Shown here: in pieces, positions 25,001-31,000 of the stretch
Layout of the letters: each line of letters opens with the position of its first letter
How positions within the stretch are numbered: the first letter of the stretch is position 1
Assembly: GCA_963702895.1 (NCBI GenBank)
Contig: OY969767.1
Coordinates: 2,272,001-2,336,000 of the forward strand
DNA from: an uncultured Elusimicrobia bacterium
GTDB lineage: Bacteria; Elusimicrobiota; Elusimicrobia; 2-01-FULL-59-12
Direction: 5' to 3'
DNA: 64,000 bases
Program-made: the position numbers

Positions 25001-28000
25001 ACATCTTCCCCTTGAGCGTTGGTGAGATATTCCCCGTAGAACTCTTTTGTGCCGGTGGAGGGATTGCGGGTAAAGCCCACGCCCGTACCTGAGTCATCAC
25101 CCATATTGCCGAAGACCATGGACTGGACATTGACGGCTGTCCCTAAATCTTCAGAGATTTTATTTTGCTTGCGGTAGTAGATCGCGCGGGGGTTGTTCCA
25201 AGACTTGAAGACCGCATTGCGCGCGCCTTCCACCTGCTTCCAGGGGTCCTGGGGGAACGCCTCGCCGCACTTCGCCTGATAAACGTCCTTGAACTTCGCC
25301 ACAATGTCCCGGAGGTCCTTCACATTGAGATCCGTATCCAGCTTGACGCCGCGCTTCTGTTTCTGGGATTCGAGGAGATGCTCAAACTCGCTCTTTTCAA
25401 TACCCCCCACCACGTTGCCGTACATGGCGATAAAACGGCGATAGGCGTCCCACGCGAAGCGCGGGTTGGACGTGAGGCGGGAGAGTCCTTCCACCACCTG
25501 GTCGTTGATGCCAAGGTTCAAGATCGTGTCCATCATGCCGGGCATGGAAAACTTCGCGCCGGAGCGGACGGAGACGAGCAGCGGATTGTCCGCGTTGCCA
25601 AAGCCCTTGTCCATGATCTTCTGGAGCTTTTCCATGGCGGCTTTTTGCTGGGCTTCGAGCTCCTTGGGGAGCCTCTGTTTATTGGCGTAGTAGTAGCGGC
25701 AAACATCCGTCGTGATAGTAAATCCAGCGGGGACGGGGACCCCGGCGTTGGTCATTTCGGCAAGACCCGCTCCTTTGCCGCCTAACAAATCTTTCATCGT
25801 GCCTTTGCCGTCAGCACGGCCTGCGCCAAAGAAATAAACATACTTCGTAGCCATGGATAATCTCCTTTATGTGATTCAGGTTGCTGTTCGATCAGGGCGT
25901 TCGGAATGCCTGAGGCAACGAAGGGGATTTTACAATATCAGGGGACGTTCCATCACAAACGTCACAAACTCCAGAAAGCCAAGAACAAGACGTTGGAGTT
26001 TGTGACGTTTGTGATGGAACGTCCCCTGGATTTATTCGTCTTGGACTTGGACGGGCACGGGCAGCGCCTCGTCAATGGCAGGTTCTTCCTCGACCGCCTC
26101 CGCCCCTTGCTCCTCGGGCGCGTCTGCGGTTGAGGGCGCGTCTGCGGTTGAGGGCGCGTCTGCGGTTGAGGGCGCGTCTGCGGGCGCGGTCGCTTCGACG
26201 ACGGTGGAGTTTTGGGCTGCTCGCTCGGGCGAGACGTCTTCTTTGTTGTCCTTGTTGAAGTTGGGCGGCTTGTTCTTCACAAAGAAGACGACACGGCGAT
26301 TTTTGGCGCGATTTTCATCGCTGTCATTGGCGACCAGCGGATGGAATTCCCCATAACCAATAGCCGCCATATGAGCGGGCGGCATGCCGAGGCCGCGAAT
26401 CATGTACTGCACAACGCGCGTCGCCCGCGCGGCGGAGAGCTCCCAGTTGGAAGAGAAATGGGCGTTGTGGATGGGAATATTGTCCGTATGCCCTTCCACC
26501 ACGATATCATGATCTTCTTTGGCAAGCTTCAGAAGAGACGGCGTGATTTTCGACAGGATCTCCTTCATCCGGGGGGAAAGATCCGCGGACCCGCTTCCAA
26601 AAAAAATGTTTTCACCGCTTTCTTGAAGCGTGATTTGCATTCCTTCTTTGGTCACTTTGACCTCGGTCGCCACACCCTCTTGCTGCATGGCGACGGAGAC
26701 ATCCTTTTTGATCTGCTGGATGTCCTTGCTCAGGGCCGCCGAGAGCGCATAGAGAATAATGAAAAAGCACACGAGCTCCGTCATGAGATCGGCGTAATTG
26801 ACGAGCCACGGAGGAGCGGGATGGCCGATCTGCGACACCCTCGGGTCGTGAATCGAAATCATGTTTTTCAGTTTTTTGGCCATGGCGTTTCCTCGGCGCC
26901 TTCCCCTAGGCGGCCTTCTGGATCAGGGCGCGTTTCGAGGGTTCCAGATAAGCCTTCAAATTGGCCTCCATGATGGAGGGGCTCACACCGCTTTGCAGAA
27001 GAAGCACTCCCCGAATAATGATTTCCTTGATCAGGAGCTCCTCTTCCGATCGGCGGCGAAGCTTACCGGCCATGGGGAGGAAGAGCATGTAGCCGGAGCC
27101 CAAACCGAAAAAGGCGGCGGCCAGACACAGCGCCATCCGGCGCGGAACTTCTTCGACATTGGAAATCGTGTTGAGCATGAGGATCATCCCCAGAACGGTG
27201 CCGATAATCCCAAAAGCCGGACTATAGGTTCCCAGCGAATTGAAAATCTCTTGCCCCACCTGATGGCGCTCACGAATAAAGCCGAGCTCCGTCTCCATCA
27301 TGTTGCGGATAAATTCCTGGTCTGATCCATCGATCACCAGCTGCACGCCACGCTTAAGAAAGTCATTTTTGAGGAGCTTGACGTCGCCTTCGAGCGCCAA
27401 AAATCCTTCGGTACGGCCCTTCTTGGCAAAGTTCACAAAGGTCGTGACGATTTCGGAGGTGTCCTCGCCGCTGGCGGCCATCACTTTTTTGAGAACCCTA
27501 AAGAGACCGAAGACTTGCCCAATGGGATAATTGACCAGAATCGCACAAAAGGTCCCTCCCATCACAATGAGAAAGGCCTCATAGTTGAGAAATGGCTTAA
27601 AACCCGCGACGCCCTCCCCCAAAAAGACGGAGATAATCACGAGCCCAGCTCCCACCACAATTCCTAACAGTGTCGCGATGTCCATCTCAACCTCCCGGAA
27701 TCAGGGACGCGTCACGGTCGATGAAGGACGAGACATGCGCTGCCTGTTCCTATCGTCTCACTCACCTTCATGGCCCTCTTGTCCCTTATCTCTTTTCTCT
27801 CATCTCACTCTTTTAGGCGGCTTTACGTCTTGGGCTGACGATTCTTTTCCTTATGGTTCTGCCGTGCCTGCTGCGCGTTTCATGGACGACCCTCTGGGGC
27901 TTCGCGTCTTCCATCAAGAATCCAATCACAAGGCAAAGAAATCCCACGAGAATCCCCGTCATGGCAATCAGTGTTAGCGACATGGTGTACTCCTTTCGGA

Positions 28001-31000
28001 TTCCCCCCGCAAATACTGGGGAAGGTACGTCGATCCCGCAAAGACCGTCTTCTTGTATTCGATCGCTTTCTGGACCACTTCCGTCACTGGCTCACGAACA
28101 ACAATTTTGTTCCCTGTCGCCATGGCGAGCACCGTTTCGATGCCATGGCTTTCGATGGACTCGATCAGCTCGGCGTTCACCACCGTTTCCTGGCCGTTGA
28201 GTCGGTGGAGTTTAATCATGCGGCCGCTCCCGATTGCAGCTTCCACTGCTCAAACCAGCTCTTGAGCGACGGGTCTTTATTGATCTCACACATTCTTTCG
28301 TAGGCCCCGGCGGCCTCGTTGACCATGCCCTGGGCCGCGTAAGAACTCCCCAAATACTGATAGGCCTGCCAATGGTCAGGCTGGGCCTGGATGGCCTCAT
28401 GAAAGCTGCGAATGGCTTCCGCCAAGAGGCCCTGCGCGAAGAAGGCGGTGCCCGCTTGGAATCTCGCCTCCGCCTCGGCGGGATCCACCTTGGCTGGAGG
28501 GGGGGCGGCTTTGCCAAGACTCAAATGCAGAGGCTCCGTATCATCAGCCGCCTCCTCGCCTTCGAGGATGCCCATCTTTTGTTTCTTGCGGATGCTGATT
28601 TTGTTTTCTTTTTCGAGCTTGGTGATGATGTCCATGAGCTTTTTACGCTCATCCTCAATCTGCTCCATGGAAAGCGGTCGGCCATAATCCATGGATTCCT
28701 TGAGCAGTGCGGCGGCGCCCGCCGACATATTGTTGAAGAACTTGTTGATGTAATCCACCGGCGCTTCGCGCAGCGCCCGCGCGAGCTGCTCCGTACCGAT
28801 TTCGCGAACGATGCCCTGGACCGCCTGGTCCGGGAATTTGAGAATGTCCTCAAAGAGGATGACTTCTTCTCGGACGCGCTCATAGAGCTGCGGTTTCTCA
28901 TTGCGGAGGTAATCCAGAATATTTTCCCGGGTGGTCTTATCAGCCTCATTGAGGATCTTCACGAGGTTTTCAATGCCGCCTAAGACGAAATCGACTTTTT
29001 TCTTAACGTATTCATCGATCGACATCACCTGTTCCAGGGAGGTTTGGCGGATGGTGGCCGTCTCCACAGCGACGCGCGCCTGAAGCTCCGGTGGAAACGA
29101 GGAAAAGATCTCTTTGGCGAACTCCGGTTTGAGGTACGACAGGACGAGCGACACGATCCACGGTTCTTCCTTACGAAGGAGGTAGGCCAGCCCTTTGAGA
29201 TTTTGTTCCGAAACATATTTGAACGGCTCAAACTTTTTCATGGCTGCCTCCTCCTCCTCTAACTTCTGCTGTTCTTCTTCGGTGAGCACCCCATCCCCTT
29301 CTCCGCTGCCCCCTCCTCCACCCCCTTCTTGCTTACCTTCATTTTCATTGGCCATCTCCTGTTCGCTTTCCTCTTTCATCGTGGTCATCTGCTCAATGCG
29401 TTGCGTCTTGTCTTCGAGGGCGGCGTTGAGCCGGCGGAAAAAGCTTGCCAGAGGCCCCCAGAGGAAGAGTAAGAGCCACAAGGTCAGGGCGATGGGAATG
29501 ATCCATTTGGGCGCGAGCAATTGCTGCCAGGCCGTCTCGCTAAAGGTCGTGGGGGTGAAGACCATCTGATTTTCCGTGACTTTCAGAAGCGCGATGATGG
29601 CTTGCTTGACTGCCAGAAGCTTATCTCCAGGAACTTTGTTGTCATAGAGCACCGTCACCAGCAGTTTTTTGATGGTCGTCCGGACTTCGACGCGCTTCTG
29701 AAGCATTTGCCCTCCGGATTCTTGAGAGGAGCCGCCACGATCCTCCTCCTGCTGAAACGGAGACTTGGGCATGGGAACGCCAGGGACAAGGACTTTGGCT
29801 TGCGGGAGGGGCAGGGCTTCGCCCGTGTCTGTCTCGCTCTTTTTTTTGTCGCTCTTTTTCTTTTCCATCCCCAATTCAGAGGCCCGCGATTCAAGACCCA
29901 TCTCCACATCCACGATCACGACCGCTTTTCCCGGGCCTAAGATTTTGTCCAGGACGTTTTCCTGCAGGTATTCCGTCTTTTCCTTCTCAAATTTGGATTC
30001 TTGCTCGAGGAGCATCATATCGGGGGAGAGCCCGGAGGACGCCGCTGGCGAGGCCGACTGCCCCACGGCCGCCCAGACGATCCCGCTGGTCAGCAGGAAC
30101 GATGCAAAAAGTAAATGGATTCGCATTCTTGTGACAAGTCTAGCCTGCCCCTTTGGGAGTTTCAATGACGTAAAGAAAGTTTTACAGCTAAAAACGAGCT
30201 GTTAAGTAGACGTGTTTTTATGGGTCTAGAAGTGCAGCTGGGTTGGCGAGATTAACCGTATTTGTAAGACACGCCGAAACCGCCACGCGGCGGCTCCCAT
30301 GCGATGTTATTGAAAGGGCAGAGCATGCGCGCCGCTCCGCATTCAATACAGTTTTCGTAGGCGAGGATGATCTTCTGCTTGTCCTGGTCCCAGGTGTAGA
30401 CCCCGGCGGGGCAAGCGCTCACGCAGGGCTTGTTGGGACATCCAAGGCAGACCTGCGGGTCGATAATCTTGATGTGGGTTTGGTGATCGTTCTTATACGT
30501 GAGAAGCCCTAATTTGGCTTCAAGCGTCATGGGTTTTGGATTTTCTGCCATCTTAGCCAATCGCCTTTCTAAGACTCAGCGCGTCCTTCACCATACGGAA
30601 GAGCCCACGTTCCTTGCGGAAGAGGCGGAAAATGCGCCGCTGGTGGTCCCGCTTGGGATGGCCGTCGACAAGAAAATATTCTTTGGCCGCCTCCGTGACC
30701 AAGCGCGGATAGACGGTGAGCATATCGCGGTTTTCACGCACTTTTTCTTCGATGTCCTTGTGGTCTTTCATATCAATGAGGACAAAGGAGCGGTCCAGTT
30801 TTTTGCGGTAGAGCGAAAGCATCTTGGAAGTGAAATCATTTTTTTTCTTCGCTTCGATGGCTGTTTCGGCCGCCAACTTCCCGGCAGCCATGGCAAGGTT
30901 GGAGCCTTCCCGGTGTGTGGGGTTGATCATTTGCGCGGCATCCCCAGCGATGAGCATCCCATCCGTATACAAGGGAGGCATGACGTTGTAGCCCCCTTCC

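Follow-up and report, generated by a model that had tools for sequence, protein, structure and literature searches.

A FliF-FliG fusion protein encoded with MotA/MotB in a non-flagellated Elusimicrobia bacterium: a candidate flagellum-independent stator-rotor module

Background

The Agl-Glt system of Myxococcus has a motor of the TolQR/MotAB type, in which one A subunit is combined with two different B subunits (AglR, AglQ and AglS), together with cytoplasmic coiled-coil partners and outer membrane barrels; to our knowledge, it contains neither FliG nor FliF domains. The order flbD, motA, motB is known from flagellar genes. Fusions of FliF to FliG have been engineered for Salmonella and Vibrio, according to the available text of two reports (PMC10941966, PMC11481574), and one engineered fusion (PDB 8z4d) is among the structures matched in our analysis. 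The machinery of Bacteroidota for type IX secretion (the T9SS) and for gliding, as outlined in the available text of three others (PMC8986121, PMC8754138, PMC9143113), comprises the GldLM/PorLM motor, the PorKN ring, SprA/Sov, PorV and cargo proteins with a C-terminal domain (CTD).

In the Elusimicrobiota, the accessible sections of a 2022 preprint (bioRxiv 10.1101/2022.07.08.499144) state that magnetotactic and most free-living members lack flagellar structural genes, yet encode homologues of motAB, flbD and fliG, the role of which is termed unclear, with gliding or twitching suggested; flbD is labeled a transcriptional activator, a description that belongs to the unrelated FlbD of Caulobacter. 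The presence of these genes in non-flagellated members was therefore already described, whereas those sections mention no FliF-like domain, fusion, TPR tail, division into two types, dedicated stators or synteny with PorV and giant-protein genes.

An operon for a FliF-FliG fusion and a stator

The window (the whole 64,000-nucleotide stretch analyzed) belongs to a host genome that is a single contig of 2.72 Mb and 98% complete. At 26032-30126 on the minus strand it contains a five-gene operon, encoding the fusion, FlbD, a 56-aa transmembrane (TM) protein, MotA and MotB, all with intact reading frames. The genes and domains initially annotated here are confirmed by Pfam and PDB sequence searches:

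28216..30126, minus strand: type-A FliF(RBM3)-FliG(M,C)-TPR fusion, 636 aa from ATG (Pfam, PDB sequence search, hydropathy, AF2 model); an alternative upstream start, TTG at 30165, gives 649 aa
30064..30126, minus strand: N-terminal hydrophobic stretch of the fusion, aa 1-21 (hydropathy)
29512..30039, minus strand: periplasmic FliF RBM3/beta-collar-like domain, aa 30-205 (AF2 model, Foldseek, VIA)
29443..29511, minus strand: TM helix, aa ~206-228 (hydropathy peak 2.13; conserved in homologues)
29230..29442, minus strand: acidic, Gly-rich low-complexity cytoplasmic linker, aa ~229-299, at the position of FliG_N (sequence)
28585..29229, minus strand: FliG middle and C-terminal (torque) domains, aa 300-514 (Pfam, PDB sequence search, alignments)
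28219..28494, minus strand: cytoplasmic C-terminal TPR domain, aa ~545-636 (Pfam, PDB sequence search)
27974..28219, minus strand: FlbD/SwrD-family protein, 81 aa (PF06289, 73.5 bits)
27813..27983, minus strand: 56-aa ORF with one TM helix and no family (counterpart in G064)
26906..27685, minus strand: MotA, stator A subunit, 259 aa (PDB sequence search, Pfam)
26032..26883, minus strand: MotB, stator B subunit, with a TM helix carrying Asp, a plug, an OmpA-like peptidoglycan-binding domain and an Ala/Pro/Asp-rich repeat tail (Pfam, PDB sequence search)

The TGA of the fusion gene is overlapped by the ATG of flbD as ATGA (28219-28216). The 56-aa ORF is likely a real gene; G064, a genome from the host's own family that is flagellated, has a 42%-identical counterpart at the same place.

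Within the fusion, the Pfam matches to FliG_M (58.6 bits), FliG_C (94 bits) and TPR_2 (36.2 bits) are each above the cut-off (residue numbering for Pfam was taken on the 649-aa ORF), there is no match to FliG_N above the cut-off, and residues 300-513 match Thermotoga maritima FliG (1lkv) with an E value of 6e-39 in the PDB sequence search, which bears out the assignment of the cytoplasmic part as FliG M and C. Hydrophobic stretches are seen at 3-21 and 203-227. Both had been read as TM helices flanking a periplasmic domain; the second stands, while the first is probably a Sec signal peptide, or else the first TM helix, as the N-termini of many homologues are signal-peptide-like and apparently cleavable, judging by their sequences. 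A single polypeptide combines a periplasmic domain of the FliF RBM3/collar type, a TM helix, the M and C domains of FliG and, at the end, the TPR tail.

The periplasmic match to FliF, initially one row at rank 26, is the first match of the separately folded domain in two independent fold searches, and the top match for the models of both types of fusion (see below). The type-A model (AF2, pLDDT 76) has an alpha-beta-(disordered loop of ~60 aa)-beta-alpha-beta topology with two strands of 17-19 residues. Ranks 1-19 in Foldseek (E<=1e-3) are 18 FliF MS-ring entries and, at rank 16, SpoIIIAG, with E values of 3e-6 to 7e-4. In VIA, FliF 8z5v_A leads with Z 11.9 (rmsd 2.2, 98 aligned), followed by FliF at 10.8 and 10.4 and then by SpoIIIAG (8.8) and PrgK (8.7); for type B, FliF scores 14.9, 13.8 and 13.8 and the next match 9.5. 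SpoIIIAG (Z 7.7 against type B), which also has a large inter-strand insertion, and SctJ/PrgK/EscJ share the alpha-beta-beta-alpha-beta RBM fold, but score below FliF in both models and have neither FliG domains nor a stator partner. At the sequence level, PF08345 is above the cut-off in six of ten fusion homologues, five of the ten having been chosen for its known presence, and also in the host's own type-B fusion (24.4 bits versus a cut-off of 23.8); the window's fusion has no Pfam match to it at E<=0.1. A profile built from 40 periplasmic domains finds a canonical FliF (P0297) with an E value of 3.9e-18. By modeled fold and sequence profile, the domain is FliF RBM3/collar-like.

The MotA/MotB pair is, by its sequence, of the flagellar type and retains the Asp of the channel, the plug, the two prolines and the anchor to peptidoglycan. 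MotA matches Clostridium sporogenes MotA (8ucs/6ysf) over 2-257 (E 1e-47); the position equivalent to R90 is basic in 28 of 28 MotA proteins, and both prolines are kept. MotB has MotB_plug (45 bits) and OmpA (67 bits) matches in Pfam and aligns with 6ysf_A (E 9e-37), TM Asp included; this Asp is kept in all three MotB proteins of the host, as initially reported. The genome has two further MotA_ExbB genes of TolQ/ExbB size.

Shared with the flagellar MS/C ring and the engineered fusions are the RBM3/collar-type domain, the TM helix, the Gly-Gly linker and FliG M and C; the covalent 1:1 ratio of FliF to FliG recurs in the engineered fusions, and the flagellar motor likewise has FlbD/SwrD and a MotA/MotB pair that includes plug, Asp and peptidoglycan domain. 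Unlike flagellar FliF and FliG, the fusion lacks RBM1/RBM2, FliG_N, the E[HN]PQ FliM-binding motif (0/40 fusions) and the torque-helix Arg, and has a TPR tail and probably a signal peptide replacing TM1. The helix before Gly-Gly is ~9 residues shorter than in flagellar FliG.

Two types of fusion and their gene neighborhoods

The second fusion locus with MotA/MotB that had been reported in the genome is likewise present:

contig 1837387-1838895: type-B fusion, 502 aa, followed by MotA and two MotB

The genes directly upstream of this fusion encode a TPR-LysM protein and also a PorV-like barrel. The family split long ago into two paralogous types: type A has TPR and FlbD, type B two MotB. MotA adjoins the fusion in 16 of 20 type-B loci, hand-picked like those below, and 13-14 of the 16 with a stator have one MotA and two different MotB, comparable, by description alone, to the subunit make-up of Agl-Glt.

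Contrary to the initial picture of a minimal, stand-alone rotor, the fusion of relatives belongs to a conserved cluster, which is new. Its order is giant protein, PorV/PorQ-family barrel-TPR protein, fusion, coiled-coil and TPR proteins, and FlbD-MotA-MotB. In loci hand-picked by frame length from FliG_C matches, in related and hence not independent genomes, the barrel-TPR gene lies directly upstream of the type-A fusion in 18/19 and a cytoplasmic coiled-coil protein gene downstream in 18/19; a giant ORF (>= 1100 aa) is upstream in 11/19. FlbD-MotA-MotB is within the same stretch in 9/19, and in the other 10/19 no MotAB lies closer than about 9 kb. In one locus (L043), an LD-carboxypeptidase gene follows MotB. 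The window operon and that of G064 have no PorV, giant or coiled-coil genes adjoining; the host orthologues of the cluster are at contig 18970-37923, 2.26 Mb from the window operon.

A link to a T9SS-like system had been set aside for want of co-occurrence. PorV-family genes are indeed far more widespread than the fusion (185 of 201 sampled genomes), including families f2 (58/58) and f12 (47/63), which have PorV and neither fusion nor MotA, so PorV-linked functions do not generally need the fusion motor; f12 has FliG only of canonical length, in G123. Gene order, however, closely associates the fusion with one subfamily of PorV-TPR proteins. Similarities to T9SS and gliding include a 5:2-type motor driven by the proton motive force (PMF), PorV/PorQ-family barrels (NF033709, 109-127 bits versus a cut-off of 90) and giant surface proteins whose T9SS-like CTD matches are weak and under the curated cut-offs; a 1813-aa ORF of the host is distantly SprA-like, again under the curated cut-off. 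Unlike T9SS, MotAB here would act on a cytoplasmic FliG, whereas GldL/GldM span the periplasm, and the PorV of the cluster has a TPR extension. Searches for GldL, GldM and GldK found nothing, a weak negative since their positive controls also gave no match.

Absence of a flagellum and distribution in the phylum

The host has no flagellum, as initially concluded: profile searches of its contig found no FlhA (FHIPEP), FliF RBM1-2 (YscJ_FliF, PF01514), flagellin (Flagellin_N), FliM/N (FliMN_C), rod (Flg_bb_rod) or CheW, and each search was positive in Escherichia coli, Bacillus subtilis, Caulobacter and Thermotoga. FHIPEP, CheW and FliMN_C were detected in G064, which encodes FlhA, FliF, canonical FliG, FliM/N, CheW and a third, flagellar MotA, in addition to the two fusions, each accompanied by a MotA of its own. 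Because this genome has the flagellar set alongside the two fusion loci and their separate stators, the fusions represent a parallel system and not flagellar debris.

The family is widespread, as had been proposed: FliG_C occurs in 72 of the 201 sampled genomes (53/77 genera) and FHIPEP in only five; most of the FliG_C frames are open, at 470-860 aa, and very few contain stops. Rotor and stator co-occur almost without exception, with both present in 71 genomes, FliG_C only in 1, MotA only in 3 and neither in 126.

A proposed stator-rotor module and its alternatives

Every testable part of the initial interpretation held, the corrections concerning the minimal rotor, the dismissal of T9SS and the prior description of the gene content. 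We favor, with a probability of roughly 0.6, a flagellum-independent, ion-driven stator-rotor module with a surface-protein output via a PorV-like barrel. The periplasmic domains would assemble as an MS-ring-like ring, placing a 1:1 FliG ring under the membrane, which peptidoglycan-anchored MotA5B2 units could turn or push via the FliG C-domain. Via the periplasmic ring, this work may then reach the PorV-like barrel by its TPR arm and move, secrete or anchor giant surface proteins, as do GldLM/PorLM in type IX secretion and gliding. In relatives, the fusion gene has genes for outer-membrane and giant surface proteins as neighbors, so the motor probably acts on something non-flagellar at the cell surface; there is no export gate, rod, hook or filament, and the gene neighbors differ from those of a flagellum. 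Switching would not depend on FliM/N; control may instead lie with histidine kinases, encoded nearby or fused. Points against this reading are the non-canonical torque helix (described below), the missing PF08345 match in the window's fusion, the separation of the operon from the PorV, giant and coiled-coil genes in the host and in G064, the type-A loci with no MotAB nearby, the PorV genes of families that have no fusion, and the CTD matches under the curated cut-offs.

The FliG sequences bear on an unlikely alternative, a stator adaptor with no rotating ring, in which the FliG domains only dock MotA5B2 and stator rotation is converted either to lateral transport or to a conformational pull exerted on a membrane protein that forms no ring and crosses the membrane once, and that hands energy on to the periplasm in the manner of TonB, TolA or Agl-Glt. 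The Arg aligned with E. coli R281 in the torque helix is present in 9/9 canonical FliG and 0/40 fusions, and at the E98-aligned position MotA has Glu in only 6/9 type-A and 3/16 type-B stators; because this Arg is absent and the Glu often lost, the flagellar-type MotA-FliG contact may be altered. The lost Arg fits an adaptor, as do the absence of FliM/N, stabilizers of the flagellar C ring, the long cytoplasmic coiled-coil and TPR proteins of the cluster, and the pairing of one MotA with two different MotB in most type-B loci with a stator, reminiscent of AglR/AglQ/AglS. A ring is favored, however, by the best fold match, to the part of FliF from which the 33-34-mer S ring and the collar are built, the match extending to the long paired strands around the loop; by the next-best matches, SpoIIIAG and PrgK, which are likewise ring builders; and by the FliG M/C domains and the Gly-Gly linker for FliG ring packing, the latter kept in 40/40 fusions.

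Less probable than an adaptor is Tol-Pal-like envelope tethering or outer-membrane maintenance, by a PMF-driven inner-membrane complex linked via TPR/LysM proteins to an outer-membrane barrel and to peptidoglycan, which would serve integrity or division and not the movement of surface proteins. The TPR-LysM and barrel genes of the second locus, the L043 LD-carboxypeptidase and the OmpA-like domain of MotB are in keeping with it. The genome, however, also has its two TolQ/ExbB-size genes; genes for giant proteins that carry BNR, Fn3 and CTD-like domains lie directly upstream in 11/19 type-A and 8/20 type-B loci; and the entire small-genome families f2 and f12 lack the system, unlike a core envelope function.

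Still more doubtful is a signaling device, in which contact of the stator with FliG would inform histidine kinases of the PMF or of mechanical load, with the ring as a sensing scaffold that does no work. A histidine kinase gene is found in the host's type-B locus and in at least 5 of 20 sampled type-B loci, and in P0235 and P0271 RBM3-FliG is fused to HisKA-HATPase_c. N-terminal extensions, however, occur in only 7 of 115 fusions among the best 150 representatives (these two, both examined, included), leaving 108 without; most fusions have no kinase domain, the type-A cluster genes are structural and not regulatory, and a kinase beside a machine is more simply its regulator.

Finally, a decaying, functionless remnant of a lost flagellum, suggested by the flagellated closest relative G064 of a non-flagellated host and by the flagellar flbD-motA-motB order, is close to refuted by the five intact frames, the mostly open frames across the 53 genera, the separate complete flagellar set of G064, the conserved architecture and synteny, and the FliG tree, in which the 40 fusions stand apart from nine canonical FliG (SH-aLRT 90) and type A is a single clade (SH-aLRT 96).

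A FliF-FliG fusion encoded with its own stator

Five close-set frames on the minus strand of the window (26032-30126, by ORF reading) encode a protein in which a periplasmic FliF-like domain is joined to the middle and C-terminal domains of FliG, together with an FlbD-family protein and a MotA/MotB stator:

28216-30126, minus strand: fusion protein, 636 aa (Pfam FliG_M, FliG_C and TPR)
27974-28219, minus strand: FlbD-family protein, 81 aa (PF06289, 73.5 bits versus a cut-off of 24.7), its ATG overlapping the preceding TGA as ATGA
27813-27983, minus strand: 56-aa ORF with one hydrophobic helix
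26906-27685, minus strand: MotA (Pfam MotA_ExbB)
26032-26883, minus strand: MotB (Pfam MotB_plug and OmpA)

The flanks of the operon are unrelated to it, being pyruvate phosphate dikinase-like downstream and FixX/FixC-like upstream (named from their translations rather than by family scan). A promoter and terminator scan of 25700-30600 gave counts not above those of shuffled sequences and has no bearing on the limits of the operon. The hydropathy profile of the fusion contains two hydrophobic stretches, at residues 3-21 and 203-227. Because the first of these often resembles a Sec signal peptide among 120 homologues read by eye, the mature fusion is probably single-pass, with a periplasmic N-domain, a TM helix, an acidic Gly-rich linker, the FliG M and C domains and a TPR region. 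The same genome encodes a paralogous 502-aa fusion at a second locus (contig 1837387-1838895); we refer to the window protein and its relatives as type A and to this second form as type B.

The periplasmic domain is FliF collar-like

The FliF-like fold of the periplasmic region had initially been annotated from one match, at rank 26 amid TPR matches. When residues 30-205 are folded alone from an 85-sequence alignment (mean pLDDT 76), FliF comes first in both of two independent structure searches. The model is a single domain of about 180 aa, composed of a helix, a long strand, about 60 disordered residues, a second long strand, a helix and a strand. In a Foldseek search of the PDB at E<=1e-3, the 19 matches consist of 18 FliF MS-ring entries and SpoIIIAG, ring builders without exception. 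In VIA-align against 48,161 representative chains, FliF takes ranks 1-3 (Z 11.9, with an rmsd of 2.2 over 98 residues, then 10.8 and 10.4), followed by SpoIIIAG (8.8) and PrgK (8.7). The periplasmic domain of the type-B paralogue, modelled from 20 sequences (pLDDT 71), gives FliF Z scores of 14.9, 13.8 and 13.8, the next family reaching 9.5.

Sequence profiles lead to the same family. PF08345, the FliF C-terminal part that covers RBM3, matches end-to-end and over its cut-off in six of ten homologues, five of the ten having been preselected as already bearing the PF08345 label, and it scores 24.4 bits in the type-B protein of the source genome (cut-off 23.8). The window fusion taken alone has no Pfam match to PF08345 at E<=0.1. 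An HMM built from 40 periplasmic domains alone and searched over 1.84 billion representatives yields 3297 matches at E<=1e-3 and 521 at E<=1e-10, including, at E 3.9e-18, P0297, a canonical FliF that has both PF01514 and PF08345. The RBM1-RBM2 part of FliF (PF01514, YscJ_FliF) has no match at E<=0.1 in the whole source genome. Fold and sequence agree in marking the periplasmic region as FliF RBM3/beta-collar-like.

The FliG part and its torque interface

The cytoplasmic part of the fusion matches both FliG_M (PF14841, 58.6 bits) and FliG_C (PF01706, 94 bits) over cut-off, and a sequence search of solved structures returns T. maritima FliG (1lkv) at E 6e-39. The full-length FliG equivalog TIGR00207 is not reached (140.7 versus 226.7 bits, over model positions 92-330 only), and FliG_N, the domain by which FliG binds the C-terminus of FliF, stays below its cut-off (16.8 versus 25 bits) with a match that overlaps FliG_M.

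Two motifs separate canonical FliG from the fusions. E[HN]PQ, which we take to be the EHPQR-type FliM-binding motif, is found in seven of nine canonical FliG versus none of 40 fusions, and the Arg of NMSxR in 9/9 versus 0/40. We equate this Arg with E. coli R281, and the acidic position after LLK or LK with D288, by motif rather than by alignment to the E. coli proteins; the charged residues of the E. coli torque helix are R281, D288 and D289. On that equivalence by motif, the acidic residue is retained in most type-A fusions. The torque-helix pairings used here, in which R281 is the partner of MotA E98, follow the consulted sections of PMC12505986. The Gly-Gly linker is present in 40/40 fusions; compared with canonical FliG, the preceding helix is shorter by about nine residues. 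Judged by these residues, the rotor side appears altered relative to canonical FliG.

The stators

The window MotA resembles Clostridium sporogenes MotA (8ucs_C/6ysf_E) at E 1e-47 over residues 2-257 and scores 87.9 bits with PF01618, falling below the NCBIfam equivalog cut-offs (217 versus 394 and 215 versus 340). It is of the flagellar type, with four TM helices, a cytoplasmic torque domain and full-length likeness to the solved flagellar MotA. The window MotB matches the MotB of the same entries (E 9e-37) with the TM Asp aligned, and contains the plug (45.2 bits) and OmpA (67.1 bits) domains. The Asp that the initial annotation had reported in the TM helix of three MotB-like proteins is indeed kept in all three MotB of the genome, one in the window and two at the type-B locus.

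Among 28 MotA compared, all have the prolines of the YAPAFG and FLPxAGK motifs and a basic residue at the R90 equivalent. The E98 equivalent is Glu or Gln, with Glu in 6/9 type-A, 3/16 type-B and 1/3 flagellar stators of the phylum; we assign both positions by motif and E. coli numbering, partly after PMC12505986, and not by alignment to the E. coli proteins. On sequence grounds, the residues needed for ion-driven rotation are retained in the stators. FlbD lies directly before MotA in eight of the nine stator-bearing type-A loci, and in the ninth (L027) it lies before a small ORF that precedes MotA.

Several further features of the stator genes were observed. The C-terminal tail of the window MotB (26032-26200, minus strand) is of low complexity, with a sixfold-like ADAPST repeat (…APADAPSTADAPSTADAPSTADAPEE…), and is missing in the shorter MotB (208-265 aa) of most relatives. 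A protein of 235-245 aa without a family follows MotB in three type-A loci (L013, L014 and L024), and a homologue with 39-46% identity is encoded at contig 1797650-1798162. In most type-B loci (L035-L050) a single MotA is encoded together with a tandem of two differing MotB paralogues; in the pair of the source genome (contig 1835246-1836518) both have the plug, the Asp and the OmpA domain. This arrangement suggests a type-B stator with a heterodimeric B axle.

A system independent of the flagellum

The source genome is a single contig of 2.72 Mb, 98% complete. As initially annotated, it has no flagellum: FHIPEP, YscJ_FliF, Flagellin_N, FliMN_C, Flg_bb_rod and CheW have no match in it, and all six are matched in flagellated control genomes. 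With neither flagellar structural nor export genes, the genome offers its MotAB no flagellum to work on. FliG_C is present in two copies and MotA_ExbB in four, of which two are MotA and the other two have TolQ/ExbB size.

In an even sample of 201 Elusimicrobiota genomes from 77 genera, FliG_C occurs in 72 genomes and 53 genera, mostly in frames of 470-860 aa, in keeping with the wide distribution first proposed for it. FHIPEP occurs in only five of the 201. Four of these five carry, in addition, a canonical-length FliG of 335-356 aa; in the fifth (G121), the frame with the FliG_C match near the flagellar MotA is only 121 aa long. G064, one of these FHIPEP-bearing genomes, comes from the same family as the source genome and encodes FlhA, FliM/N and four CheW matches, with a 525-aa gene of FliF size directly preceding a 334-aa FliG and a separate MotA within the flagellar region. 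The same genome also bears one fusion of each type, A and B, and each of the two has a MotA of its own. Therefore the fusions run parallel to the flagellum where it is present, and they persist where it has been lost. FlhA, FliM/N and CheW are found in G064 but not in the source genome, and FliM/N and CheW are also missing in G201, a third member of the family. The loss of the flagellum is recent within this family, and the fusion loci were kept at least in the source genome. A genome without a flagellum that keeps FliG and MotAB could be thought to carry a dead relic of one, against which stands G064, with both fusions and their own MotA beside a separate flagellar set.

The branching of the FliG M and C domains was followed in a quick, unrooted IQ-TREE analysis of 49 rows, namely 20 fusions each of types A and B and nine canonical FliG (few in number, four of them from flagellated Elusimicrobiota; the fusion of locus L052, missed in ORF calling, was left out). 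In this tree the nine canonical FliG separate from the 40 fusions (SH-aLRT 90), and type A forms one clade (SH-aLRT 96). We also considered whether the FliG part was copied recently from the flagellar FliG of the phylum itself. This idea was dropped: identity to that FliG is only 24-32% and does not exceed the 31-34% found with FliG from other phyla, and in the tree the flagellar FliG of the phylum groups with the canonical sequences.

With the window MotA as query (E<=1e-25), MotA is found in 74 of the same 201 genomes. FliG_C and MotA occur together in 71 genomes, FliG_C alone in one, MotA alone in three and neither in 126; since related genomes are not independent, these counts are a description and not a test. 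The sole genome with FliG_C only (G123) is fragmented and has a FliG of canonical length.

A conserved cluster around the fusion genes

A genome-contig search with the single fusion protein returned only six close relatives. Loci were chosen by hand on frame length, giving 19 of type A (600-690 aa) and 20 of type B (468-523 aa) from 31 genomes; about 9 kb was fetched on either side of each fusion, and ORFs were labelled by BLAST and Pfam/NCBIfam. ORF calling was crude, some missed genes being recovered through their BLAST labels.

In type A, a PorV/PorQ-family barrel protein with a C-terminal TPR region (530-614 aa; NF033709 109-127 bits versus a cut-off of 90) lies directly upstream of the fusion in 18 of the 19 loci, the only locus without it being that of G064, the closest relative of the window. 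A protein of 457-1244 aa with long coiled coils and no TM helices lies downstream in 18/19 loci, preceded by a further protein of 1600-2100 aa in eight (L015-L020, L028 and L029). Upstream of the PorV-TPR gene, 11/19 loci have an ORF of 1100-1900 aa; the C-termini of these giants match FlgD_ig and, weakly, models of the type IX C-terminal domain (PorU and PorZ tails; TIGR04183 under its cut-off). FlbD, MotA and MotB lie within the same stretch in 9/19.

In type B, MotA adjoins the fusion in 16/20 loci, 13-14 of the 16 having two MotB-like ORFs. A PorV-TPR gene lies upstream in about 10/20, a giant BNR/sortilin and Fn3 protein with the same kind of tail as the type-A giants upstream in 8/20, and a histidine kinase occurs in at least 5/20. 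The second locus of the source genome contains, in a row, a PorV-like barrel, a TPR-LysM protein, the fusion, MotA, two MotB and a histidine kinase.

The type-A cluster of the source genome is present but split, the fusion, FlbD and MotAB lying in the window, 2.26 Mb away from the remaining genes:

contig 18970-37923, minus strand (L053): giants of 2110 aa and 1099 aa, PorV-TPR protein of 582 aa, TPR protein of 1609 aa, coiled-coil protein of 762 aa

This PorV-TPR protein scores 93.6 bits with NF033709 and has 34-45% full-length identity to 18 sampled PorV-TPR proteins. The 1609-aa and 2110-aa proteins match TPR only, or nothing; the coiled-coil protein has no Pfam or NCBIfam family and no PDB sequence match, Atlas rows for it being all below 0.9. 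The stator-rotor module belongs to a larger conserved gene cluster, which is new here.

A second PorV/PorQ-family gene (NF033709 183 bits) is found in the window itself at 55314-56153, minus strand. It directly follows a giant ORF of 2978 aa (56273-64000+, minus strand) that runs past the window end and has a weakly PorU CTD-like C-terminus. The two make up a cargo-plus-barrel pair as found beside the fusions elsewhere, but without a rotor gene.

How far the likeness to type IX secretion goes

To our knowledge, Elusimicrobiota are not known for type IX secretion. The likeness to that system extends to the PorV/PorQ-family barrel, with NF033709 scores over 90 in the fusion neighbours, in the source genome's own cluster and in the window copy. 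The source genome has at least 10 PorV-family matches and 23 ORFs with PorU-CTD-like C-termini (E down to 1e-13). At least eleven of these ORFs (650-1650 aa; E 1e-13 to 4e-10) stand in a row on the minus strand, over about 40 kb within contig 2.185-2.232 Mb. In the giant neighbours of the fusions, the CTD sorting signal TIGR04183 reaches 16.7-17.6 bits, under its cut-off of 23. In addition, a 1813-aa ORF (contig 1187754-1190987) matches four collinear pieces of the SprA/Sov model (63+49+36+33 = 181 bits, under the cut-off of 200) and appears to be a distant SprA-like protein. No GldL was found in the source genome, and no GldM or GldK in it, G064 or G201, a weak absence because no control genome matched over cut-off.

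PorV-family genes are present in 185 of the 201 genomes, far more widely than FliG_C, including 58/58 of family f2 and 47/63 of family f12. Family f2 has no FliG_C, the only FliG_C in f12 is the canonical-length FliG of G123, and neither family has MotA. Plain co-occurrence therefore does not tie the motor to PorV. The initial annotation had judged a link to a type IX-like system unsupported by co-occurrence, and on that point it stands; gene order, however, ties one PorV-TPR subfamily to the fusion.

A proposed mechanism

The following mechanism is proposed on the basis of the domain make-up and the retained channel residues, together with stators dedicated to the fusions, conserved neighbours and independence from flagellar genes. 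The RBM3/collar domains would assemble into a ring, as theirs is the fold that builds the S-ring and their next-best fold relatives are also ring builders; the ring of FliF itself has about 33-34 subunits. Below the membrane, the same chains would form a 1:1 ring of FliG without FliM/N, driven by peptidoglycan-anchored MotA5B2 units. FlbD could assist the stator, by comparison with B. subtilis SwrD, a 'torque enhancer' in a table of PMC13277936. The periplasmic ring would hand the output on to the PorV-like barrel, at its TPR arm, and to the giant cargo of that barrel. Control may come from histidine kinases, in view of the HisKA-HATPase_c domains ahead of RBM3-FliG in some relatives (P0235 and P0271).

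We give a probability of roughly 0.6 to this reading as a whole, in which a MotAB-driven ring of fusion proteins delivers its output via PorV-TPR to giant surface proteins. The same genes could instead encode an adaptor that engages the stator without rotating, a tether of the Tol-Pal kind, or a sensing device. The narrower claim of a working non-flagellar stator-rotor pair is one that we hold with considerable confidence. At its widest, the MotAB-driven reading would give Elusimicrobiota a rotary machine that spans the envelope, in which dedicated MotAB stators turn a ring of FliF type fused to FliG. With PorV-TPR as its partner in the outer membrane, this machine would move giant adhesin-like surface proteins or export them. 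It would serve gliding or a type-IX-like process, with the flagellar torque interface in place of GldLM. Because it combines an MS/C-ring and stator without type III export and branches apart from all sampled canonical FliG, the machine could also serve as a present-day model of a rotor-stator module that can exist apart from the flagellum or that predates it. This widest version is tentative, and we lean slightly against it.

Relation to earlier work and significance

The consulted sections of bioRxiv 10.1101/2022.07.08.499144 note that flagellar structural genes are missing from magnetotactic and most free-living Elusimicrobiota, which nevertheless have motAB, flbD and fliG homologues; the role of these is called unclear, and a link to gliding or twitching is proposed. 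Those sections make no mention of a FliF-like domain, a fusion, two paralogous types or dedicated stators, nor of coexistence with a true flagellum or a cluster of PorV-TPR, giant and coiled-coil proteins. Engineered FliF-FliG fusions are known (PMC10941966 and PMC11481574, consulted in part). Searches of openly available full-text literature yielded this remark on gene content but no account of a natural FliF-FliG fusion, or of a PorV link, in non-flagellated bacteria, and the word stem 'Elusimicrobi' is absent from PMC12505986 and PMC13277936. The presence of the genes has thus been noted before; the fusion architecture and the system appear new, as a variation on known machinery.

If a FliF-FliG fusion occurs naturally across a phylum, with dedicated stators and in cells that lack flagella, the rotor-stator core would be shown to be a portable module. 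All uses of the FliG-MotA torque interface of which we know are flagellar, and the partners differ in other 5:2 motors (Tol, Ton, GldLM, Agl and Zor). With one rotor protein, no switch and no export gate, the system would be a far simpler object than the flagellum for the study of torque and ring assembly, and it would bear on how the flagellar motor could have originated independently of the type III export apparatus. A concrete, testable guess at the output comes from the conserved link to a PorV-family barrel and giant proteins. The system may also explain flagellum-free movement in free-living, even magnetotactic, Elusimicrobiota, a question raised in the consulted sections of bioRxiv 10.1101/2022.07.08.499144.

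Other contexts of the collar domain

Among the representatives matched by the periplasmic-domain HMM, HisKA and HATPase_c are fused ahead of the RBM3 domain in P0235, P0271 and P0256, with or without FliG domains. An N-terminal extension of about 340 aa occurs together with FliG M and C in seven of the best 150 representatives. RBM3-like domains are also found beside a MacB periplasmic core domain and beside FtsK 4TM/alpha domains (P0241 and P0218). As a lead only (score 0.84), PF08345 is present in 67% of the members of an Atlas cluster of TPR proteins (372 aa) that is commonest in Myxococcota. The FliF collar domain may be in wider non-flagellar use.
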